DNA from: a virus
Taxonomy: Duplodnaviria; Caudoviricetes
Strand: one strand, 5' to 3'
Length of the DNA: 64,000 nucleotides
IMG/VR virus record: IMGVR_UViG_3300027991_000002
Coordinates: 11,208 to 75,207 of that record
The notes beneath the pieces are model-generated. The model was not told the DNA's origin and made no database searches. It saw nothing but the letters and a program-made list of their open reading frames with translations. Shown piece after piece: positions 11,109 through 40,900 of this stretch (positions are counted from its first letter, which is position 1; every line of letters starts with the position of its first letter). A program made the translations under genes and the position numbers.

Positions 11109-12115
11109 ACACAAAAGATTTTGAAGAAGTAAAAACCGTTTGGACGGATGACATTATCATTCACAAACAGCCGTATACCGTTTACAGAATAAAAGTTGGC
11201 GGAGGAAGAATTTACTATACGCTGGATGCAGACAATAATCCTACGTTCTATATTTCGCTCACCACCCTTACCAAGCATACGCTCCCAACGGGAGAACAAT
11301 TAATAAAATGGATTGCTCAAACAGGGTACTATGAGTCTAAGAGATATATGAACGAAAGAGCAAACTACGGTACTTTAATGCACATGGCAATCGGACAATT
11401 CCTTATCTTAAAGTTTTGGAACTTTGAACAGTCCGAAGATTTTATTACCAACACTATTCAAGATGGGGCTATTGATGCTATTGAACCCGATAAGTATAAT
11501 GATGACCTGAATCGTGACGTTGCCGCATTCGCTCAATTTTGTGTAGAGCATAAAGTAAGACCATTGGCAATAGAACTTGTACTTGTATCTAATAAAGGGT
11601 ACGCTACTTTAATTGACCTTGTGTGCAGAATGACTATTGAGGAGAAAGGGTACTTTGGAGAAACGTACAAGTCAGGAGTACAAAAAGGAAATCCGAAAGA
11701 ATCAAAACGCGAAAAAGAAATCACCGCGCTGTTAAACTTTAAATCAGGCAAGAAAGGATTTTATGAGGAGAACGAAATTCAACTTGAGTTTGAAAAGAAA
11801 TTGTTTGAAGAAAATTATCCTGAAATAAAAATTGACAAGATATTTAATTGGTCGCCTAAAGATTGGAACAACTCACCAACATATAATCTGAAAGACCAAT
11901 CTGATTCATTGAACAAAGAAAAGGCAGATGCCCTACTTGCTATTGCCGCGATTGAGCTTATGAAAAAAACTCCGATGGAAAGAAAGTTAGTAGGCACACT
12001 TTCGCTTGGTCAAACTCCGCAAATTGAAGACAAAACTATTTATGATATTGTCAGGGAGCGAGCCGCGAAAAGGCACGTAGAGAATGTTCCGAAGAAAGAA
12101 GAAATGGCAATTTGA
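11105..12115 (+). CDS. PD-(D/E)XK (Cas4/RecB-like) exonuclease
   Basis: YGTLMH, ELVLVS-x-KGYATLIDLV, LNFKSG, EIQL motifs; start moved to ATG 11105 (ATGA overlap). Confidence 0.75.
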   Translation: MNTKDFEEVKTVWTDDIIIHKQPYTVYRIKVGGGRIYYTLDADNNPTFYISLTTLTKHTLPTGEQLIKWIAQTGYYESKRYMNERANYGTLMHMAIGQFLILKFWNFEQSEDFITNTIQDGAIDAIEPDKYNDDLNRDVAAFAQFCVEHKVRPLAIELVLVSNKGYATLIDLVCRMTIEEKGYFGETYKSGVQKGNPKESKREKEITALLNFKSGKKGFYEENEIQLEFEKKLFEENYPEIKIDKIFNWSPKDWNNSPTYNLKDQSDSLNKEKADALLAIAAIELMKKTPMERKLVGTLSLGQTPQIEDKTIYDIVRERAAKRHVENVPKKEEMAI

Positions 12116-12148
12116 AACAGTTGAATAGCCCCTCATGTAAACCAATAG

Positions 12149-12238
12149 ATAGAACGAAGAAGCACTAACGAATGTAAAATTTTTGCCATTGAAAACAGAC
12201 AGATTAAAAATTTTATTTCGCTTTGTGCTGTGTTATGC
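12149..12238. repeat. attC-like site A (90 bp)
   Basis: AAC gaaga AGCACTAACGAATGTAAAATTTTT ... AAAAATTTTATTTCGCTTTGTGCT gt GTT. Confidence 0.75.
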
Positions 12239-12324
12239 GAGTGCGCATGGATTTTATGCGGTGGGGTTCGTTCTTTTTTCTGTTTTCAATTTTTAGCGTT
12301 GGCATTAATTAAACAATCATAAAT

Positions 12325-12741
12325 ATGAAAAGGCAACAAACAATAGTATCGGAAAAAGAAATCCTGAAACTCGGTGGAGTTGATAAGGGATATAAATTTG
12401 AACGCACCAAGCATGAACATGGGGATAGAGAAAAAATATTCTATAAGCAATGGAAGAAGGAAAATAAGCAGTTACGATGGCTAAACTTCGGGCAGGGAAT
12501 ATTGCAGGATTTATTTGCCATTACTGGTAATAATCCTTTCAACTTTATGAGGGGAGGATTGATAGGTTGGAAATTAATAATCAACAGGAGGGATAGATAC
12601 ATTGTGGCAACAGTGATGCAATGGCTCGGAACAAATTGCGGTTGGTGCTGGCTTGAAGAAACACTTAGGAAGTGCGGGTACAGATTAGAAAAAATTGAGC
12701 GGGAGGAAAAAATTGAAAACAGAAAAAAGAATGTCGCATAA
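12325..12741 (+). CDS. cassette cargo, hypothetical protein (138 aa)
   Basis: Stop TAA lies inside TCGCATAAC of site B; VATVMQWLGTNCG motif. Confidence 0.8.
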   Translation: MKRQQTIVSEKEILKLGGVDKGYKFERTKHEHGDREKIFYKQWKKENKQLRWLNFGQGILQDLFAITGNNPFNFMRGGLIGWKLIINRRDRYIVATVMQWLGTNCGWCWLEETLRKCGYRLEKIEREEKIENRKKNVA

Positions 12742-12793
12742 CGGCAAACGCTTTATGCCGTTATTTTCAATGGCATTAAAGCGTATGTTCTAT
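12736..12793. repeat. attC-like site B (58 bp)
   Basis: AAC ggcaa ACGCTTT-ATGCC loop GGCATTAAAGCGT at GTT; one extrahelical base. Confidence 0.85.
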
Positions 12794-12818
12794 TTAGGTT
12801 TTTAAAATTCTTTGAGCG

Positions 12819-13031
12819 ATGGCAAACAAAATATGCAGAATAACAATATTAGCTTTCATGTTCGGAGATATACCGAAAGGAATTGAGAACGGATATGATG
12901 ATTGGGACTTAGAAAACGGAATACAATATTGTGAAGAATTGATGCGCTATGAAGGAATGACACATGAACCGATGGATAAGTTTGAGTTGAAGAAATATAT
13001 TGAATGGGCAAAACAGAAATTGAAAGAGTGA
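12819..13031 (+). CDS. cassette cargo, hypothetical protein (70 aa)
   Basis: ORF track; between sites B and C. Confidence 0.7.
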   Translation: MANKICRITILAFMFGDIPKGIENGYDDWDLENGIQYCEELMRYEGMTHEPMDKFELKKYIEWAKQKLKE

Positions 13032-13054
13032 GTGTGGCAATTTTAAAAACTTGA

Positions 13055-13391
13055 ATAGAACGTTGCTCGGATTGAAGAATGTAAATTAAAATTATAGCGA
13101 TGCACAAGAACAGAACAGCAAACGGATTAAGGTTGCAAGAGCAACATAACCAACGTTACAAGAAAATGTTGATAGGAAAAAAAGCGAAGGACGGGCGAAC
13201 GGTTATTAACACAGAATGGATTGGAAACAGCACATACGGATGTGTTCGATTATTTTTCGATAATCAAACCGATGATTTATGTAGTAGTACAATGGGATTT
13301 AAACCGACAAGAGAGGATTTTACAGACAGGTACGGAATTACATGGTGAGCGATGGCAATTTTAATTTATTTCTTTCAATCTGGTGTTAGTT
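13055..13391. repeat. attC-like site C (337 bp, gene in loop)
   Basis: GATTGAA-GAATGTAAATTAAAATT pairs with AATTTTAATTTATTTCTTTCAATC (13358-13380). Confidence 0.8.
13100..13348 (+). CDS. hypothetical protein inside attC C loop (82 aa)
   Basis: ORF track; bracketed by AGCGATG motifs. Confidence 0.7.
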   Translation: MHKNRTANGLRLQEQHNQRYKKMLIGKKAKDGRTVINTEWIGNSTYGCVRLFFDNQTDDLCSSTMGFKPTREDFTDRYGITW

Positions 13392-13421
13392 TTAGTTTTT
13401 AACAGGCAAACAAAATAGAAA

Positions 13422-13613
13422 ATGGAAAAGTTATCAGACAAAGCAGAAAAGAGAATTAAGAAAATCTATCCTGATGCGAGGGCAGAGAGGGATGGCGCAA
13501 TGTTCTTTATAGTAACTGACTTACTTAAAGGAGAGGACAGAACTTTAGGTGGTGGATTTAGCAGAGATGGCGCGTGGTGTAGCGCGGGTTGCTCTGTGCC
13601 TGTTAAAAATTGA
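13422..13613 (+). CDS. cassette cargo, hypothetical protein (63 aa)
   Basis: ORF track; ends in the outer arm of site D. Confidence 0.7.
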   Translation: MEKLSDKAEKRIKKIYPDARAERDGAMFFIVTDLLKGEDRTLGGGFSRDGAWCSAGCSVPVKN

Positions 13614-13959
13614 AACTAACGAGGAAGGATTTGTGAAGTAAAATTTTCGATTAAAAACTATAACCTTTAAAAACAGAAAAGCGATGGAAGTAAAAGGATT
13701 TTATATCAGAAGCAATGGCGACCCTTCGGTTGGTATATTCTCTGCTCAATGGGAATTGCGAAATGACTTCGTATTTGACGACATAGAAGATTTGGAATAT
13801 TTCAGGTCGGGGCTTGCGCGTTTGCTCGGTGAGCATTGCGGGGAGAGGTGCTATGTGCAAACTTTTGAGGAGTGGGCTGAACAAATTAAATTAGAAGAAA
13901 AAATGTGTAGTGACGCACAGAAGGAAGAAAATTTTATTTCATCAAATCCTGTGTTGTCG
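13614..13959. repeat. attC-like site D (346 bp)
   Basis: GGATTTG-TGAAGTAAAATTTT pairs with AAAATTTTATTTCATCAAATCC (13928-13949), then tgt GTT at 13953. Confidence 0.8.
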
Positions 13960-14046
13960 GATAGTTTGCCTTTTGATTTAGCAAGTCATCCTGACACAGA
14001 AGCTGACGGACATGTATTCTGCGGTAAATGTGGAAAAGAAAAGTGA
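13684..14046 (+). CDS. hypothetical protein reading through the attC D arm (120 aa)
   Basis: Peptide ENFISSNPVLSDSL is the attC arm; C-terminal CxxC. Confidence 0.7.
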   Translation: MEVKGFYIRSNGDPSVGIFSAQWELRNDFVFDDIEDLEYFRSGLARLLGEHCGERCYVQTFEEWAEQIKLEEKMCSDAQKEENFISSNPVLSDSLPFDLASHPDTEADGHVFCGKCGKEK

Positions 14047-14056
14047 GGCAAATTTC

Positions 14057-14588
14057 CGACAACGGGAAGGGGATTGAAGAATGTATTTTAATTTTTTAGC
14101 ATGGGCAAACTAATGGTAACACCAATATTCCAAAACGAAGCGTTCGCGTTCATCGAACAACACCACAGGCATCATAGAAAGCCAGTAGGCAGCGTGTTTC
14201 AGATTGCAGTGAGCGAGGGTGAGCGTGTGGCAGGGGTGGCGGTTGTTGGCAGACCAAACGGACGAAAACAGCAGGACGGATTTACATTAGAAGTTACACG
14301 GCTATGCACAGACGGAACTAAAAATGCCTGCTCAATGCTTTATGCAGCTTGCTGGAGAGCAGCCAAAGAATTAGGTTATCGAAAACTGATTACATACATA
14401 CTGAACACTGAGCCGGGGACATCATTAAAAGCAAGCGGGTGGAGATGCGTTGGGGAGCGCGGTGGCGGGAGTTGGAACGTACCGAGCCGCCCCCGTGTTG
14501 ACAAACATCCGTTGCAGAAAAAATTGTTATTTGAAATCGAGTAGCGCGATGGGAAAATTAAAATATTTCTTTCAATCCCATGTTGTTG
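14057..14588. repeat. attC-like site E (532 bp, gene in loop)
   Basis: GGGATTGAA-GAATGTATTTTAATTTT pairs with AAAATTAAAATATTTCTTTCAATCCC, then at GTT at 14582. Confidence 0.8.
14101..14544 (+). CDS. XF1762-family (Mom-like GNAT-fold) protein
   Basis: FIEQHHRHH, GVAVVGRP, TLEVTRLCTDGTKNACSMLY, LITYIL, GTSLKASGW motifs. Confidence 0.8.
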   Translation: MGKLMVTPIFQNEAFAFIEQHHRHHRKPVGSVFQIAVSEGERVAGVAVVGRPNGRKQQDGFTLEVTRLCTDGTKNACSMLYAACWRAAKELGYRKLITYILNTEPGTSLKASGWRCVGERGGGSWNVPSRPRVDKHPLQKKLLFEIE

Positions 14589-14621
14589 GCAGCGTAGCTG
14601 AGTTTGCTTTTCGCAAATTGC

Positions 14622-14831
14622 CAACAACGTCACGCAGGATTTATGAAGGATTTTTTACGATTTTAAAACCAACAAATATGAAAACACCAAAAGAAATTTT
14701 AGAAGGAAAACAAGCATTCAAAGATTTCCTGTATAAAGCACCCGACTGGATTAGGGAAGACATTATTGCAGCAATGATGGAATACGCATTGGAGCAAGTA
14801 AAAAATCTTTCATTAAATCCTGTTGTTGTTG
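14622..14831. repeat. attC-like site F (210 bp)
   Basis: AGGATTT-ATGAAGGATTTTTTAC pairs with GTAAAAAATCTTTCATTAAATCCT, then gtt GTT at 14825. Confidence 0.8.
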
Positions 14832-14938
14832 GGCGCAGCGAACAGTTAAAATCTGACTTGTACAAATTCAGGGATATGTATTGTCAAAATATTGACTTAG
14901 CTACCATAGATGAATATGTTGACGGCTTAGGATTTTAA
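14678..14938 (+). CDS. hypothetical protein reading through the attC F arm (86 aa)
   Basis: Start moved to ATG 14678 (A-rich context); VKNLSLNPVVVGRSEQL is encoded by the arm. Confidence 0.65.
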   Translation: MKTPKEILEGKQAFKDFLYKAPDWIREDIIAAMMEYALEQVKNLSLNPVVVGRSEQLKSDLYKFRDMYCQNIDLATIDEYVDGLGF

Positions 14939-14942
14939 TTGC

Positions 14943-15073
14943 CAACAACGTTCATCGGATTTATTCTCGTTGCATTAAATGATAAAAACTTAAACCATAA
15001 ATAAAACTCATTATGAAAAACAAACCTACGATTAAAAAGAAAGCCAGCAATGGAATGAAATCCGTTGTTCATG
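14943..15073. repeat. attC-like site G (131 bp)
   Basis: GGATTT-ATTCTCGTTGC pairs with GCAATGGAATGAAATCC, then gtt GTT at 15067. Confidence 0.7.
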
Positions 15074-15333
15074 GCAGTGCGGATAAATGGTCAAAAATTA
15101 AGTGGAGCAAAAAAGTTTTGCAAAAAGCGCAGGAAAATCATATCTGGTTGAACGCTTTTGATTGCGTAAGACCGACACCTGCATTCTGCGAAAGTCTTGG
15201 TAGGTCAATCATCAATAAATTACGGGATGAAGAAAATTTAATCCCGATGAGTGGCATTACATCGGATGTTGAAGCGATGCGAGAGATTGCAAAACTTACC
15301 CCGATAATGTACATGAGCATTAACAAGAGCTAA
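15013..15333 (+). CDS. hypothetical protein reading through the attC G arm (106 aa)
   Basis: ASNGMKSVVHGSA is encoded by the arm. Confidence 0.65.
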   Translation: MKNKPTIKKKASNGMKSVVHGSADKWSKIKWSKKVLQKAQENHIWLNAFDCVRPTPAFCESLGRSIINKLRDEENLIPMSGITSDVEAMREIAKLTPIMYMSINKS

Positions 15334-15347
15334 GATGTGAGCATTGC

Positions 15348-15404
15348 CATGAACGGTAGAGATTGTTGCCGTTAATTTCAATGGCATACAATCTAATGTT
15401 ATCT
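15348..15404. repeat. attC-like site H (57 bp)
   Basis: AGATTGT-TGCC gttaatttcaat GGCATACAATCT; loop nearly identical to that of site B. Confidence 0.85.
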
Positions 15405-15436
15405 GCCGTTTTGGATTAACTAAATAAATATAAATT

Positions 15437-15742
15437 ATGAAAGCAAAAGAGTATGCACAAAGGGTAACAAGTACAGAAAATGTTCAAGATGCAATGACTG
15501 AGCTTGGCAAATGCGGAAAAGATTTTTTCAACGAATTTATCGCAATGAGAAAATCACGTAACATAAAAACCGATGATGGATTATTAACGCTGGTGAAAGA
15601 GTTCGATAATAAATTCAGAACATTTTCTGTACTTGTGGATTCACACTACAAAGGGATGGTTAAACCAAATGGATTCATTGAACTGCTTCGGGAGTTTGTT
15701 CCTGTACTTGCTAATGAATATGAAAGGAAAAATGGCAGATAA
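15437..15742 (+). CDS. cassette cargo, hypothetical protein (101 aa)
   Basis: Stop TAA lies inside GCAGATAAC of site I. Confidence 0.75.
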   Translation: MKAKEYAQRVTSTENVQDAMTELGKCGKDFFNEFIAMRKSRNIKTDDGLLTLVKEFDNKFRTFSVLVDSHYKGMVKPNGFIELLREFVPVLANEYERKNGR

Positions 15743-16571
15743 CGGTTACGGCTTTAAGCAGTGGGGATTATTAGCACAAATGTTCAATCGAAGCGATAAA
15801 AAAAATAAAGAAAAATTTTTAGGGAGGCATTTTTAATTTAATCATTTAATCATAAATAAAACAAAATGGAAAAAGTAACAAACACAGCAAAGAACCCACG
15901 ACTTGAATGGTTGATGGGTGGAAATCCTAATGCTATTGAAGCACAGGAAGTGCAAGGACAAAAGGAACTTGTGAAATCATCACAACTACCAGCGAAAGTA
16001 AATTCGCCAAGAGGAGTGAACATTGAGGAGCAATACGCCTTGATGGGAATAAAAGTAATTGGCAAAACCAAAGGAGATGAATTATTCCTTGATGTGGAAT
16101 TGCCAAATGGGTGGAAGAAGGAAGCAACCGACCATTCAATGTGGAATAAATTGGTTGATGATAAAGGAAGGGAAAGGGCAAGTTTCTTTTACAAAGCTGC
16201 ATTTTATGACCGAGATGCTTTTGTGAATTTTAGCACACGGTATAATTGGAATGCCAATTACGAGGATAAGGACAATGTGAGCTACTTTGTAAAAGATAAC
16301 TCCATAGGTGAAATTGTATTTGAAACAGAAAAGATGAGTAAAGATGTAAAACAGCCGAACTACTTTAAAATACAGGATGAGTTACAAAACCAATGTAAAC
16401 AATTTCTGAAAGACAAGTTCCCTGAACACGAAAACATAAATGCTTATTGGAATTAAATCATTTAATCATTAAGAGCGTGGGCAAAAATTTTTCTTTATTT
16501 TTTTTCGTTCATATCAGCACGAACTTAAATATGGAGCGATACACCCCATTGCTTTAAAGCCGATGTTATGC
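15737..16571. repeat. attC-like site I (835 bp, gene in loop)
   Basis: CGGCTTT-AAGCAGTGGGG / CCCCATTGCTTTAAAGCCG plus AAAAAAAATAAAGAAAAATTTTT / AAAAATTTTTCTTTATTTTTTTT. Confidence 0.85.
15866..16456 (+). CDS. conserved phage protein inside attC I loop (196 aa)
   Basis: NPNAIEAQEVQGQKELV, LPNGWKKEATDHSMW, GRERASFFYKAAFYDRDA motifs. Confidence 0.85.
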   Translation: MEKVTNTAKNPRLEWLMGGNPNAIEAQEVQGQKELVKSSQLPAKVNSPRGVNIEEQYALMGIKVIGKTKGDELFLDVELPNGWKKEATDHSMWNKLVDDKGRERASFFYKAAFYDRDAFVNFSTRYNWNANYEDKDNVSYFVKDNSIGEIVFETEKMSKDVKQPNYFKIQDELQNQCKQFLKDKFPEHENINAYWN

Positions 16572-16733
16572 GAAGTTGCCAATACCAAATTCAAAAAGAC
16601 AAAAAACTCATTGGCAATTTTGCATAACGTTCGAGGATAAACGAAGTGCATGAGTAACCGAAAAATTAACTGAACAGCAAGTAAGAAATTTTAATAAAAA
16701 TATTTTTAGGGAGGGAATTTAAAAAACAACATT

Positions 16734-16892
16734 ATGAAAATAAACTTTGATGTGAACCTGCCGGATTGGTTTGTAATAACCGGACTTACTGTTTTTACAG
16801 TTTGGATGATTCTTGACATAATAAAAAACTGGCTCAAACTTATCATTTGGAATTATGAGAGGAAAATTAAAAAAATGGAAAACGAAAAGTAA
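16734..16892 (+). CDS. small membrane protein inside attC J loop (52 aa)
   Basis: Translated by hand; one hydrophobic helix; TAATG coupling to next gene. Confidence 0.6.
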   Translation: MKINFDVNLPDWFVITGLTVFTVWMILDIIKNWLKLIIWNYERKIKKMENEK

Positions 16893-17317
16893 TGGCAATC
16901 TTAAACTATACAACCTCCATTGATTCTGAAAAGACAATCGGAGAGATTCAAAAATGCTTAGTGAAGCACGGGGCAATGAAAATCACCACTGATTATCAGA
17001 ACGGGATTCCATGCGCTGTTACTTTCTGCCTAATCATCAAAGAGAATATGGTTGGGTTTGCATTGCCAGCAAATTATTCAGGCGTTCTCAGGGCAATGAA
17101 GCGAGATGGAAAAGTTCCGCGCTCAAAATGCACAGAGGAGCAGGCAATAAAAGTTTCATGGAGAATAGTGAAAGACTGGGTTGAAGCGCAGATGGCAATA
17201 GTTGAAGCTGAACTTGCACAGATGGCGGAAGTGTTTTTGCCGTATGCAGTTACAAAGAATGGAAACACTCTTTGGAAACAGATGGAAGGAAACGGAATGT
17301 TATTACTTAACTCTTAA
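16892..17317 (+). CDS. conserved phage protein inside attC J loop (141 aa)
   Basis: NYTTSI..EKTIGEIQ..L..HGA, VSWRIVKDWVEAQMA, EVFLPY motifs. Confidence 0.85.
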   Translation: MAILNYTTSIDSEKTIGEIQKCLVKHGAMKITTDYQNGIPCAVTFCLIIKENMVGFALPANYSGVLRAMKRDGKVPRSKCTEEQAIKVSWRIVKDWVEAQMAIVEAELAQMAEVFLPYAVTKNGNTLWKQMEGNGMLLLNS

Positions 17318-17485
17318 CCTTTTTACAATTTGAAAAATTGTGATGAGCGTAGGCAAAATATTTTTATTAAAATTTCTCTAACCGTAATTGACAGTACAGA
17401 TGGAAGCATTTCGTTTATCCTTTGTTATCAGATGAAAAATTATCCCTTTTGAGCGCGGGATGCTCGTAATTTAATAATTACAAAA

Positions 17486-17683
17486 ATGAAAACATGGGAA
17501 TATAAAATTAATAGCGTAAATGAATATGATGCTTTTGAAAATGTTGGCGGCTCGGTTGCCGAAAGAATTTTAGATGGAGCGTCAAAAGACGGATGGGAAT
17601 TAGTGTCTGTTGTCGGAATAAACACAATGGTAATTTTTTACTTTAAAAGAGAATTAAATAATGGAGGTGCGGTGGCGGGATAA
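17486..17683 (+). CDS. DUF4177-like small protein (cassette cargo)
   Basis: MKTWEYK ... DGWELVSV ... FYFKRE signature. Confidence 0.8.
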   Translation: MKTWEYKINSVNEYDAFENVGGSVAERILDGASKDGWELVSVVGINTMVIFYFKRELNNGGAVAG

Positions 17684-17692
17684 TTTTTTTTC

Positions 17693-17820
17693 TGATAACG
17701 GATGAAGATAAAAGAAGCAGCCCTAAATAGAATGTTCAGCGGGTACGTAACCGATAGGGTAACTGAACTTAGGCAGACCTCCGATTTTGCTCGGCTGTTT
17801 CTTTTTATCTTGTGTTGTGT
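17693..17820. repeat. attC-like site K (128 bp)
   Basis: AAC ggatg AAGATAAAA-GAAGCAGCC pairs with GGCTGTTTCTTTTTATCTT gt GTT. Confidence 0.85.
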
Positions 17821-17878
17821 GAGAGCATAGGGATTTCAGGCGATGGGCAGTTTTTAACTTAAAATAATTTTAAAGCGT

Positions 17879-18193
17879 ATGGCAAAGATTTATTTCAGCA
17901 AATACAATGATGAGGAAGTGGCTTATACATTGGACTATTGGAAAACTTACATGGAAGAAAACCTCATTGAAGAAATGACATTGTTTGAAGGCAAGCGAAT
18001 GACAGGCGAGGGCTATTTCTATTGTAAAGAATACTTTGAAGTTGGATTAGCGAGAGAGTCATGTGGAAAGATATGCGAGGGATATAAGCCGAACAATGGC
18101 AAGAATGGCAGATGCAAACATTATGGATATTGCTATGAGCCAACAGATAAAAGGTTGGTGTTGCAAGCGGGCGGAAAAATTATTTTAAGTTAA
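17879..18193 (+). CDS. cassette cargo, Cys-rich protein (104 aa)
   Basis: FYCKEY, SCGKICEGYKPNNGKNGRCKHYGYCY. Confidence 0.75.
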   Translation: MAKIYFSKYNDEEVAYTLDYWKTYMEENLIEEMTLFEGKRMTGEGYFYCKEYFEVGLARESCGKICEGYKPNNGKNGRCKHYGYCYEPTDKRLVLQAGGKIILS

Positions 18194-18200
18194 AAATTTC

Positions 18201-18260
18201 ACACAACAAATATATGTATTTTTCTCTTACAACTATTTGAAACTTAAACCATAACACCAT
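18201..18260 (-). other. attI-like site
   Basis: Last AAC (18205-18207) has no hairpin partner. On the minus strand: GTTATGG (18255-18249), GTTGTAA (18233-18227), then GTTGTGTGA, directly beside the integrase-domain gene. Confidence 0.6.
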
Positions 18261-18285
18261 GCAAAATTTTTTGTATATTTAAAAC

Positions 18286-18855
18286 ATGAATAACGCTCTC
18301 ATTTATGCTTTAGCTTGTCCGGAAACAGGTCAAATAAAATATGTTGGCAAAACAAATCATTCATTAAAAAGAAGATTGCAAAATCATATAAATAACAAGA
18401 GGTCAAAAAGCAGGTGCTCTTTTTGGATTAGAGAATTAAAAAGTAAAAATATCTATCCTGAAATAATATTACTTGAAACAGTAATTGATGGGCTATGGAG
18501 ATTTAGAGAATCAGAATGGATAAAAAACTTTGGCAGAGATAATTTATTAAATGAAAACGCAGGCGGTGGAGGAATGGGGACATCTAAGATAAATTATGTT
18601 TTTTCTTTTTCCGAATCTCTTTCACAATATTCTGAAAACACTAAGAGAAACTATTTAAGCATAGTAAAAATATTCTTACATGAACATGGATGCGTTTCAA
18701 CATCAGCAGTTATTATTAATAAAAAAATGATTGAAAATTATATGATGAGATTTAAGAATAGACACAGTTATAATCAAACCTTGTCTGCATTAAAAAAATT
18801 CTTTTTATTTTTAGGTCAACCAAGAAAATTAAATGCAATTAAATATTGGTATTAA
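18286..18855 (+). CDS. GIY-YIG nuclease fused to a tyrosine-integrase N-terminal (SAM-like) domain; no catalytic integrase domain
   Basis: IYALACPETGQIKYVGKT..RLQNH..ESEWI..LLNENAGGGG, then YSENTKRNYLSIVKIFL...SYNQTLSALKKFF (compare IntI STQNQALSALLF). Confidence 0.7.
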   Translation: MNNALIYALACPETGQIKYVGKTNHSLKRRLQNHINNKRSKSRCSFWIRELKSKNIYPEIILLETVIDGLWRFRESEWIKNFGRDNLLNENAGGGGMGTSKINYVFSFSESLSQYSENTKRNYLSIVKIFLHEHGCVSTSAVIINKKMIENYMMRFKNRHSYNQTLSALKKFFLFLGQPRKLNAIKYWY

Positions 18856-37201: not shown

Positions 37202-37936
37202 TTATAGCGAAGATAATTCCCATGAATAAGGGTAGCGTCCGTTTTTAATTTTGAACTGCTCCATCTTTTGTTGAGTATTTAATCCTTGTATCGGAACGTT
37301 TTTTTGTGACATATCCAATGTGGTATTTGTATTGTTCGGCTGAATTGGTGTTTTATTTCCACCTCCCGTATCATTCTGCCCCATTCCGTAATATCCTGCT
37401 GCGGCTGCGCCAAGTAAATCTTGTGTTGCTCCGTACTTATTAGCTTCTGAACCATATCTCAATGCTGATTCAGCTTGCTTGGCTTGGGTGTATGGTTGGT
37501 ATTTATTCCATTCGCTTGCCTGATTCTGCCACGAAGCAAATGCTCCTAACTGTCCTGTTAGATTCTGTATGTTTTGATTTTGATTCTCTGCGCCTTTGAT
37601 TGCTAAATCTCCTAACTGATTTTGCTCGTTGCCTATCATCGCTGAACCTGTCGCAAGTGCATCCACAGGGCTTCCTGCGGTCTCGGTGGCATATCGTAAT
37701 CCTCCTGCGGTGGCTGCTCCGATTTTTTGTTCCATAAGTGGCTGACCGGGGAGTGTCGTTGCTAACGCTCTGTATTTAGCTATCTGTAATGCTTGTTTTG
37801 CCGCATCAGGGATTTCAAAAGGTGGACGCTTGATATGAGATAGCGCATCAGCTTCTCTTTTCTGTTTGTTAGCAAGCTCATTCTTTTGATATGCGCTGTA
37901 CGCTGCTAATGCTGCAAGGACGATTGGGAATGGCAT
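37202..37936 (-). CDS. pilot / ejection protein (244 aa)
   Basis: Hydrophobic Ala/Gly N-terminus; Gln/Asn/Ala-rich. Confidence 0.6.
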   Translation of the reverse strand: MPFPIVLAALAAYSAYQKNELANKQKREADALSHIKRPPFEIPDAAKQALQIAKYRALATTLPGQPLMEQKIGAATAGGLRYATETAGSPVDALATGSAMIGNEQNQLGDLAIKGAENQNQNIQNLTGQLGAFASWQNQASEWNKYQPYTQAKQAESALRYGSEANKYGATQDLLGAAAAGYYGMGQNDTGGGNKTPIQPNNTNTTLDMSQKNVPIQGLNTQQKMEQFKIKNGRYPYSWELSSL

Positions 37937-37959
37937 GGGTTATAGTTTTGCAAATGTAA

Positions 37960-40900
37960 TCATTGACGAATATTGTCTGACAACGGTGAATAGATAGTTA
38001 TTAAGTCCACCGCGTACATCTCTACAAGATTTGTATTGCTGTTGGTTAGTTTTACTGTTGCTACTGCTGAACGCATTTTATCTCCGTTGATTCTTGCTTC
38101 ATCCGCGCTTGGAAAGTTAGGCGTATTCATGTCGCGTAAAATTGCTCCATACAATATACCTTCCTTTTTTATGAACATATTTTTTCCGAGAATAGTCATT
38201 TGTCCGAGTGGACGAGTGACATCAGGAGCGATAGTCATTTCCATTTCCCAAACATCGGTTGACTCTTCCGATATTGCCTGCCAACTCTTCACTTCAGATG
38301 GATTGTCGTTTGCTACAACTGTAATTACAGAATCATATTGTACTCCGTAGAAATTATTTTTTATCGGTGAATCATGCACCCACAACTCTCCATTCTTAAA
38401 ACTTAAAAATGTATTTCCGATTTTTCCGTAACACTCTGGTATAAATGGAAAGAATTGCGTCCACCGTGTCTTTCCCCCTTCTTCTGCACCCTCGTTGAAA
38501 GCAATAGTTTCTCCATCTATATTCGGTAAATCTCCCCACGTTACAACTAACAGGTTGTGGTAGGCATCGTATCCCGCAATGATATTAGGATTTGTTTTCA
38601 TCCCTCTGTCGTTAAAAAAACTCTGTACTTTGTAATTTGAAATAGGAAAAAGTCCGTTGCTTGAATATCTTATCTCCGCACCTTTACTTTGGTCGTTCCA
38701 CCAAGCGTTGTTGTTGTAGTCATCACAACTTAATTTATGCTGCGTCCCCCATGAGCCAATAAGCGTATCGGCTGTATTTAAAACTGAATCTGCTAACGCA
38801 AGTATTAATTCTCCCTGTGGGCTTCTCACCATTTGTTTTTTAACATAAAACGTTTGAGTCTTATGCTCACATATAACAAGCAAAACGGATTGCGCCATAA
38901 GTCGCATCCACATGATTTTTCCGAATGAAACTTCAATGTCATAATTTTGATTGAGTGCTTCAAAGGAACTGAATCCGTTGGTTTGTGTGCCGACAAAGAA
39001 CTGATTTGAAAATCTTATTTGTCCTTCTTGAAATATTTGTTTTGAATTTTTGTCAAGTATCTGCGGGCGACCTGTCTGTGTAGTAAACGATTCGTAAAAA
39101 TCATTCACACTTGAATCTTCAATGTATTTTGCTCCGCCTAAAACAAAGTTTCGGAATCTGTAATACACATCTCCTGACTTGAATGTTCCTGTGGCGGGTT
39201 GGGTTGCGGTTTGGTCTTGCGTGCTTCCTCTGTGATACTTTACTCCGTTTAACTCGTAGATTTCATAACATTCTCCGAACTCGTAGTACCTTGTTTGGTC
39301 TGCTGGTTTAGGGGTGTAGATTTCAAACAGAGTGCCTACATCGGGGCGGAAATTAACATTGTTAATCAACACTTCAATAAAACTACCATCAGGTTCTTGG
39401 TAAACGATTTCAGCGTCTTGGTAAGTGGTGAAAAGGTTGCCTGCTCCGTTGCTTATTAATCGTATTCTGTCGCCTTGTTCCCATGTGTAATTAAGTTGTG
39501 CATTGGGATAACGAGTATGATAATCGGCTATTGATGTTGTTGTGATTCTGACTTTAGTAAAATTATTAAGATATGTTACTCCGTGAGTATTGATTTGTAA
39601 GAAACTCGGTACAGTATGTTTTCGCACTATCTGATAATGCGTAGCCCAACTTGGGGGCAGAGAAGAAATCGCCCAACTTATTTCTGCAAATCCTGTCAGG
39701 TGATTCTCTGTGTAAAACGGAACGTATAAATCTCTGATATGTTCTTGTACGGTTGTCTGACGGTTTTCTCTGTCGTAATAGATAACTGCAAATGTTTCGT
39801 TGAGCCCGCGTTTCCATGCGGAGATGGATTGAAATTCTTCGAGTAAGTCAGCAAGTAAATTTAACAGGTGATACCACTTTGATTTGATAGAAAAATCTAC
39901 ATTGTTATAATTTACCGCATCAATAGTTAATGCAAGGAAAAAAGAATCTTGCGCAAAATTGTAAACGATAAAATTATTTACTGAACTAAAAACTACATCT
40001 GAATTTCTATCAGTGACGGGAAATCCTGCAATAAATGTTCCCGCGAAAGTGTCTATGTAATCAGGAACATAAAAATACCCTTGTTGGTCAGTAGATACCC
40101 AAGAGCCAAGAGAATTTATTACCGAGACATTTGCCTGTGGAATATTTCCGTCTAAAACAAATCCATCAATAAAAGTTCTCGACAATGTTTTTACTTGTGA
40201 ACTACCATTGCGAAACGCTATTTTATTAAAAGAACCACCACCAAAGTTAGTGGTAAAATCTATAATTGTTGTACCATTAAATGCCTGTGCAATAGATAAA
40301 AGATTTCCGCCAACAGTTATTCCTTCGATTCTGTTAAATGGCGGATTCACATTCGCTACATAATAAAAAAATCCATTGTGGTCTGTCACAGCCATGTGGT
40401 TTACCCATGCTCTCTGTGACCAATTAGGTTGTAGTCCGTTGAAAGTGCAATGAGTAGGAATTATCGCTGGCGATGATAAAGAAAAAGACAATAACGCCCT
40501 TTCTATTCGTGTGTCTTCCAATATCTGAGTAGAACTTGTCGGAGTGATTGGTAAATCCGAATCACAAACATTACCCTCGAATACAGTTACATTTTGCGAA
40601 AGTATTCCGGCAAACCATGTCTGTATAGACGAATGATTAAATTTTATTGTCCATAAGTCCGCGATTGCGCTACATCCCACATAAATTGTGTTGTCAGCAT
40701 TTTGCGCCTGTACTGCATCATGTGATATTTCAGTCGCCCCTACCTTTATTTTCATCTCAAATCCCTGCGGAACATTGCCTGAATAGGTATTTGAAGCAGA
40801 GCCGACAGATATAACAGGAGCAGATGTTTTTTGATACCCTCTATTGCTTAAATCACCTGCCGTTGTTTCTGCGCCTGCTATTCTGATAATATATTCTCCT

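Follow-up and report, generated by a model that had tools for sequence, protein, structure and literature searches.

What is a short phage gene made of when its reading frame runs straight through something that resembles a recombination site? The question is raised by three open reading frames (ORFs) at positions 13684-14046, 14678-14938, and 15013-15333 of a 64,000-nucleotide stretch of DNA from a tailed phage of the class Caudoviricetes (positions 11,208 to 75,207 of IMG/VR record IMGVR_UViG_3300027991_000002); this whole stretch is called the window here. An earlier note on this DNA had described the three as ORFs translated through the arms of attC, the recombination site of integrons, and had proposed that recombination at the core GTT would swap their N- and C-terminal parts in frame. 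Our own reading, to which we give a probability of about 0.65, is that they are composite genes, part of an array of exchangeable modules, each closed by a helix, of a kind typical of a large Bacteroidota phage group.

Under this reading, the upstream module would provide the 5' untranslated region (5'UTR), the start codon, and the N-terminal part of the protein, with its right arm translated as a linker. The downstream GTT...AAC module would provide the C-terminal domain and the stop codon, its left arm being translated and its right arm lying just past the stop. Comparison with relatives shows modules that have apparently recombined with other partners exactly at the base of a helix, usually at a GTT that is an in-frame valine codon. 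Since the same pieces of protein are found with other partners at that point in related phages, the border sequences can be regarded as module ends that also serve as coding linkers.

Layout of the Three ORFs

Two classes of module alternate in the window: a GTT...AAC type, and a second type that sits between an AAC and the next GTT and whose arms begin with GGATT and end with AATCC. All three ORFs are present as described, and each start codon (ATG at 13684, 14678, and 15013) sits in the loop of a helix-closed module. Each frame then crosses the right arm of its own module and the left arm of the next GTT...AAC module, passing in all three cases from the second class into the GTT...AAC class, and stops 14-21 nt before the AAC of that second module (at 14062, 14951, and 15354). 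The peptides quoted in the earlier note are exactly what these arms encode, and the linker-spanning peptides include ENFISSNPVLSDSL and VKNLSLNPVVVGR. Its claim that the core GTT is an in-frame valine codon in every case holds for ORF2 (14822, 14825, and 14828) and ORF3 (15064 and 15067) but fails for ORF1, where the valine codon is GTG (13951-13953) and the GTT of the arm (13953-13955) straddles two codons. The parts are as follows.

13684-14046, + strand: ORF1, 120 aa, composite of modules M5 and M5b
13626-13950, + strand: M5; left arm 13626-13648 (5'UTR), loop with ATG 13684 and the N-terminal domain of ORF1, right arm 13927-13950 (encoding ENFISSNP); 22-nt pairing, matched by 0/200 shuffles
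13952-14064, + strand: M5b, GTT...AAC type; left arm 13952-13972 (VLSDSLP), loop with the conserved 26-aa tail and TGA 14044-14046, right arm 14045-14064 ending AAC-G
14678-14938, + strand: ORF2, 86 aa, composite of modules M7 and M7b
14634-14823, + strand: M7; left arm 14634-14658 (5'UTR), loop with ATG 14678 and the N-half of ORF2, right arm 14798-14823 (VKNLSLNPV linker)
14822-14951, + strand: M7b, GTT...AAC type; left arm GTTGTTGTTGGGC at 14822-14834 (in-frame VVVG), loop with the conserved C-domain and stop codon 14936-14938, right arm TTGCCAACAAC at 14941-14951
15013-15333, + strand: ORF3, 106 aa, composite of modules M8 and M8b
14956-15064, + strand: M8; left arm 14956-14973, loop with ATG 15013, right arm 15047-15064 (SNGMKS); 18-nt pairing, matched by 0/200 shuffles
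15065-15356, + strand: M8b, GTT...AAC type; left arm 15065-15080 (in-frame VHGSA), loop with the body of ORF3 and stop codon 15331-15333, right arm 15341-15356; 13/14 matches

When the three ORF regions are folded as RNA, the two-module structure appears in both the minimum free energy and the centroid structures (z-scores of -3.2, -4.0, and -3.0), and 0/100 shuffles were as stable as the native fold. The pairing of the 5'UTR with the last codons before the boundary beats 200/200 shuffles in each of ORF1, ORF2, and ORF3. Neither Pfam nor PHROG scans, which also covered the neighbors, assigned any of the three ORFs to a family.

Shared Protein Modules

The earlier note predicted that each half would be found fused to different partners at the same valine codon, and this is what the relatives of ORF2 look like. 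At least six proteins share with it only the C-terminal 37 residues, from VVGRSEQL onward; the corresponding DNA is unrelated upstream and near-invariant from the first GTT on (GTTGTAGGGCGAAGC...). The C-modules of the fetched loci L008 and L011 differ at only 3/111 nt, while their N-halves (45 and 30 aa) cannot be aligned. An exhaustive HMMER profile search of 1.84 billion representative proteins found the 30-aa domain of ORF2 in 26 of them, where it stands at the C-terminal end, in the middle, or at the N-terminal end, and once ends a 373-aa protein. In L247 and L248 the domain belongs to the upstream module, the arms of which are homologous to those of M7 but enclose other cargo, and a different C-module follows at an in-frame GTT (GTTATAAAC...GTTTATAAC). 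Searched with the ORF2-family alignment, IMG/VR gave no locus and the metagenomes gave one, L009.

For ORF1 the prediction stands in part, in that the tail is shared and the switch point is displaced. Its last 26 residues are 88-92% identical to the C-termini of two metagenomic proteins (P0002 and P0003), the remaining 70-100 residues of which are unrelated to ORF1, so that the tail is found with two unrelated N-parts. The tail DNA differs from that of the two relatives at 19-23 of 78 positions, with synonymous to non-synonymous codon differences of 12:3 and 16:2; for the ORF2 C-module the counts are 14:4, 15:4, and 8:6. Because synonymous changes far exceed replacements, the C-modules of both ORFs are evidently translated, and the ORF1 tail is, judging by these codon changes, a conserved and translated peptide domain. 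In relatives the two C-modules lack their own start codon and nevertheless show clear purifying selection, and the fused forms were called by gene callers on independent contigs. Among the fetched loci, the linkers encoded by upstream arms recur, two examples being KPALNKGA and VKNLNIPA, each followed by the boundary valine. In-frame swapping of N- and C-terminal modules at the boundary thus appears supported for ORF2 and half-supported for ORF1.

Pairing of the Module Arms

Are the helices themselves kept by selection? Of 11 two-module genes on independent contigs, 10 have a 5'UTR that pairs over 11-24 nt with the final codons ahead of the GTT. Each pair has a sequence of its own; in 9 of the 11 genes the pairing outdoes every one of 200 shuffles, and in one more it beats 196. 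The arms of the C-module covary, with GTTGTTGG/CCAACAAC in the window against GTTGTAGG/CCTACAAC in L004, L008, L009, and L011 (T/A vs. A/T), and the left-side change falls on a synonymous third-codon position. Compensatory variants are also seen within one arm family, where GTTAT[G/A/C]TGCC is matched by GGCA[C/T/G]ATAAC.

Mismatches between arms were counted after the arms had been found with a scoring blind to mismatch type. On the sense strand of the arrays there are 35 G·T mismatches against 4 A·C (13 against 0 in the window alone), compared with ratios of 11:14 and 7:6 in control regions. This bias indicates that it is one strand of sense polarity, the mRNA or the corresponding DNA strand, that folds into the helices. 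The compensatory changes and the sense-strand tolerance of G·T show that the module helices have been maintained.

Related Cassettes and Breakpoints

One pair of 15-nt arms, GTTATNTGCCGTTTT...AAAATGGCANATAAC, defines a cassette family far beyond the window. Raw matches to the 15-mer pattern in IMG/VR and in genome contigs were mostly due to chance, and only those with a partner arm were counted, which left 37 complete pairs in IMG/VR and 17 in genome contigs (mostly metagenome-assembled genomes, or MAGs, of Bacteroidota). The two arms of a pair are separated by 130-1480 nt; the same G·T wobble is present in every case, G/C, A/T, and C/G compensatory variants occur, and the arms enclose many different sense-oriented genes, often DNA methyltransferases. 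In seven of these loci (L012, L018, L030, L047, L054, L062, and L095) identical 15-nt arms enclose MT-A70-like methyltransferases that are ~65% identical in DNA, and in methyltransferase cassettes a near-identical upstream hairpin can precede cargo that is less alike.

Where does homology stop when a cassette changes its surroundings? For the same cargo in another context (L059/L070, L043/L115, and L050/L064), it stops exactly after the AAC at one end, and at the other either ~12 nt short of the GTT or where an upstream hairpin of 80-90 nt begins. In L018/L062 and L001/L122 the hairpin is shared, the cargo is different, and identity ends at the GTT. Since homology breaks at both the AAC and the GTT sides, both ends of every helix are homology breakpoints. 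Locus L006, compared with the near-identical L004, carries a two-module insertion flanked by AACGTTTTGC.

The cassette rows of L004 (~755-860) and L006 (~1690-1800) each contain a tRNA-like sequence, judged by eye, directly after a module boundary. In a scan of the genome of the cultured Polaribacter phage P12002L, inverted repeats bracket methyltransferase and Mom genes in the same manner, the Mom-like gene being bracketed at record positions 37255-38046.

Genome Setting and Array

The phage record is 75,207 bp long and its first and last 127 bases are identical, as in a circular assembly or a genome with direct terminal repeats, the latter being its IMG/VR class. In the window, small early genes occupy the + strand to ~19 kb and structural genes the - strand, and an exonuclease (phrog_298) lies directly 5' of the array region. 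Besides the modules of the three ORFs, the following features were recorded.

12232-18257, + strand: whole array, ~20 helix-closed modules with all cargo ORFs on the + strand and 10-37-bp long-range helices around every small ORF
14582-14630, + strand: small GTTGTTGGCA...TGCCAACAAC hairpin just 5' of ORF2, resembling an internally deleted copy of the ORF2 C-module
15398-15743, + strand: M9, member of the GTTATNTGCCGTTTT...AAAATGGCANATAAC cassette family, C/G variant

Long-range inverted repeats with at least 12 matches number 26 pairs between 12 and 18 kb, compared with 1-6 in 20 shuffles of the same DNA, and are near zero in the rest of the window. Some helices of the array are perfect (24/24, 23/23, 23/23, and 21/21), and the sequence differs from helix to helix. 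An RNA-type fold of 12100-18320 gives ~20 consecutive or nested modules, each spanning 50-800 nt with mutually complementary ends; the fold energy of the array is -1574 kcal/mol on the + strand and -1302 kcal/mol on the - strand, a gap of 272 kcal/mol. The 3' end of the hairpin at 14582-14630 opens a 15-nt direct repeat, AATTGCCAACAACGT (14616-14630 and 14937-14951), that flanks the whole ORF2 unit; it is exact over 15 nt and extends to ~30 nt if a few changes are allowed.

Nested modules at 15749-16562 and 16633-17422 have two or three helices each (15749-15781/16529-16562 enclosing 15799-15820/16483-16504, for instance) and look as if modules had entered the loops of older ones. The cargo of the module at 14070-14579 is a Mom-family DNA-modification protein (14101-14544, +; PF25680, E-value 2.6e-7). 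Two short upstream ORFs, one of 12 codons in the window (15381-15419, +) and one of 28 codons in L006 (~1319-1408), cross the left arm of the cassette that follows and terminate 8-20 nt short of the main start codon, a position hinting that translation may open the helix.

The last array module is adjoined on its 3' side by a 189-aa protein (18286-18855, +) that combines a GIY-YIG nuclease (residues 5-84) with a SAM-like core-binding domain of the tyrosine-integrase type (residues 114-176) and has no catalytic integrase domain. We considered this protein as a general enzyme of the arrays and rejected it: neither the fetched loci nor 4 of 5 entire records with cassettes contained a homologue, and the single match among those five was an ordinary integrase N-domain. 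A nucleotide search of the array against phages returned only one weak match of 177 nt, and an Rfam scan of 12000-18500 only one sub-threshold chance match.

The attC Question

An attC site is an imperfect hairpin of 57-141 nt with L'' and L' boxes, an unpaired central spacer, and extrahelical bases. AAC and GTT triplets stand at nearly every junction of the array, and the four flanking bases are mostly off the RYYYAAC/GTTRRRY consensus (e.g., ATAGAAC/GTTAGTT and CGACAAC/GTTGTTG). The R'' and R' of one junction pair over 3-7 bp, with full complementarity only in CAACAAC/GTTGTTG (14624-14630/14822-14828). Junction hairpins of 49-110 nt do occur at some sites (14582-14630, 15355-15397, and 16565-16628 in the window; 8611-8690 in L043); in the three ORFs, what had been called the loop is 130-280 nt long and coding.

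If the junctions were nonetheless attC sites, an integrase supplied by the host, or since lost from the phage, would act between G and TT, and the in-frame fusions would be a by-product. The succession of AAC, spacer, long imperfect hairpin, spacer, and GTT between cargo genes resembles R''-L''...L'-R' (L043; window 15352-15404), and the bracketing of genes in P12002L matches that in the window. The available text of PMC9892861 describes integrase-less clusters of attC sites (CALINs) in virulent phages, P12002L among them, reports that IntI1 recombined one predicted P12002L attC site in Escherichia coli, and notes a methyltransferase-rich cargo like the one found here.

Other evidence points the opposite way. 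A search for PF00589 in the complete 75,207-bp genome gave no match at E <= 0.1, whereas the control search was positive in 14/14 genomes; no tyrosine recombinase was found in 4 of 5 other cassette-bearing viral records, and none, Xer-like enzymes included, on the array contigs of four MAG genomes, a sample too small to exclude one. Beyond the triplets, the window junctions mostly miss the consensus, and the strongest pairing (15-37 bp) spans the cargo and not the junction. Breaks between AAC and G are as frequent as those immediately before GTT, and what travels together is a hairpin and the gene downstream of it, the reverse of an integron cassette, in which the gene precedes its attC and exchange takes place only between G and TT. 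What the array and the fetched loci contain is a cassette closed by its own covarying inverted repeat, which extends the GTT/AAC core, with sense-oriented cargo and no integrase. We judge integrase action at attC sites unlikely as the source of these junctions, and the array is not a complete or canonical integron. The attC label given to it earlier has not been earned, and membership of the integrons is not supported.

Weighing the Explanations

If the three ORFs are composite genes, helix ends would be preferred breakpoints in recombination between co-infecting phages, and whole genes and protein domains would thereby be exchanged as units. Candidate mechanisms are structure-guided exchange on folded single-stranded DNA (ssDNA), recombination through homology or microhomology of the conserved arms, and selection that keeps mRNA helices intact. 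Several points weigh against this reading. No recombinase or other enzyme linked to the arrays was found in the records checked, so we infer exchange "at" the helix base from homology breakpoints only, and selection against broken helices would yield the same breakpoints. The switch point in ORF1 lies five codons past the valine, its relatives lack arms around the shared tail (pairing there is not significant in L002 and L003), and a homologue search for ORF3 found none. The frame of the GTT, which supports the reading, was counted over a set that takes in related cassettes and some doubtful ORFs: of 95 ORFs from fetched loci that enter a GTT...AAC module and end at its right arm, 59 have the GTT in frame 0, 13 in frame 1, and 23 in frame 2. 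Lastly, some N-halves of the ORF2 family are weakly similar to each other, also in the linker (P0006/P0012, E = 0.001; P0008/P0013, E = 4e-4), so that part of the N-half diversity may reflect old divergence and not swapping.

Taken further, that last similarity would favor an account with no shuffling at all, in which fast-evolving N-halves are attached to conserved C-domains, the boundary marks a change of constraint, and the arms are incidental. We think this very unlikely, given the near-identical C-modules of L008 and L011 beside N-halves that cannot be aligned, the ORF2 domain, whose position also varies (N-terminal end, middle, or the end of a 373-aa protein), and arms that are far above chance. 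It is harder still to believe that the ORFs are not real genes across the boundary, with translation starting downstream or stopping upstream and the read-through due to chance. ORF3 does have an internal ATG (15055) just before the boundary, and its lack of homologues would fit; the startless C-modules of ORF1 and ORF2 under purifying selection and the fused forms called on independent contigs speak against it. An invertible segment was also considered and rejected: the opposite strand of 14835-14940 encodes no alternative C-terminus, and the cargo has one orientation in 54/54 members of the GTTATNTGCCGTTTT...AAAATGGCANATAAC family.

A rival that we regard as possible, if rather doubtful, acts at the level of RNA. 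The helices would insulate or regulate units in a polycistronic early mRNA: they could fold regardless of context, protect ends, or be opened in step with translation, like the long-range pairing of RNA phage MS2. Recombinants that split a helix would be selected against, so that modules only look exchangeable. This fits the tolerance of G·T and not of A·C, always on the sense strand, and the same G·U kept in ~50 copies of one arm family. It fits also the position of left arms, always 0-45 nt 5' of the start codon, with an A/U-rich leader in the loop and co-oriented cargo; the short upstream ORFs that read through left arms; and the unique sequence of each helix, which means that pairing and not sequence is conserved. 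However, it leaves unaccounted for the conserved GTT and AAC at the helix bases and the identical 15-nt arms around unrelated cargo, and were RNase III to recognize the 20-25-bp helices within ORFs, these would be a liability. Among DNA mismatches, moreover, G·T is the most stable, and the strand bias therefore cannot separate RNA from ssDNA.

The composite-gene reading has a bolder form, which we put forward tentatively and would not ourselves expect to hold: Bacteroidota phages may practice an undescribed exchange of sub-gene modules, in which helix-closed units with a shared frame convention could follow one another in any order. This convention would take the GTT at the base of the helix as the first valine codon and the upstream arm as the linker (e.g., VKNLNIPA or KPALNKGA), giving small protein domains combined in frame. 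This would be a counterpart in viruses of prokaryotes to exon shuffling, acting through folded single strands and an unrecognized enzyme, or none.

Significance

The early regions of phage genomes encode many tiny proteins of unassigned function, many of them active in counter-defense, and how these diversify so quickly is an open question. Here, the unit of exchange would be visible in the DNA as a helix-closed module, either a whole gene or a single protein domain, with joints that are usually in frame. If this is true, it provides a sequence rule for the borders of cassettes and domains in uncultured Bacteroidota phages, accounts for small phage proteins with nothing in common but a short linker or a tail of 26-37 residues, and offers a testable case of one nucleic-acid element with both a structural and a coding role.

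Comparison with Known Systems

Integron cassettes are promoter-poor, single-gene units with structure-defined sites, strand-specific folding, a GTT exchange point, and complementary ends. The modules in the window share these traits, but no IntI was found with the array, the complementarity of the ends is 10-37 bp compared with 7 in integrons, the hairpin travels upstream of the gene, exchange is also seen on the AAC side, and boundaries fall within reading frames and follow a frame convention.

In the Mu G/Gin, P1 C/Cin, and R64 Rci systems, sites within a coding sequence allow one N-terminal part to take alternative C-terminal parts in frame; a dedicated recombinase with fixed site sequences brings this about by inversion inside a single genome. 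The in-frame joining of one N-terminal part to alternative C-terminal parts is common to these shufflons or invertible segments and the present modules; in the window, by contrast, the alternatives are seen only between genomes and no recombinase was found.

The promoter/stem-loop (PeSL) cassettes of T4-type phages are reportedly bounded by direct repeats that contain an early promoter, with exchange by homology between the repeats. They are the nearest functional analogue (PMC2839356), with small accessory ORFs, a hyperplastic early region, and short, conserved structured elements at the breakpoints where related phages differ by insertion, deletion, or replacement. The units in the window differ in that they end in inverted repeats, which are mostly specific to the unit and in some cases lie inside ORFs.

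The closest published description, in what is available of PMC9892861, is that of the CALINs in virulent phages. These share with the present array co-oriented accessory genes (methyltransferases and Mom), lytic phages of the Bacteroidota type, imperfect AAC/GTT hairpins, and the lack of an integrase. That text handles the sites as ordinary attC predicted by HattCI/Infernal and, in the same available portion, does not describe helices that close the cargo, exchange at both ends of a helix, or ORFs that cross the boundary. The phage "CALINs" of the literature may not be ordinary integron debris.

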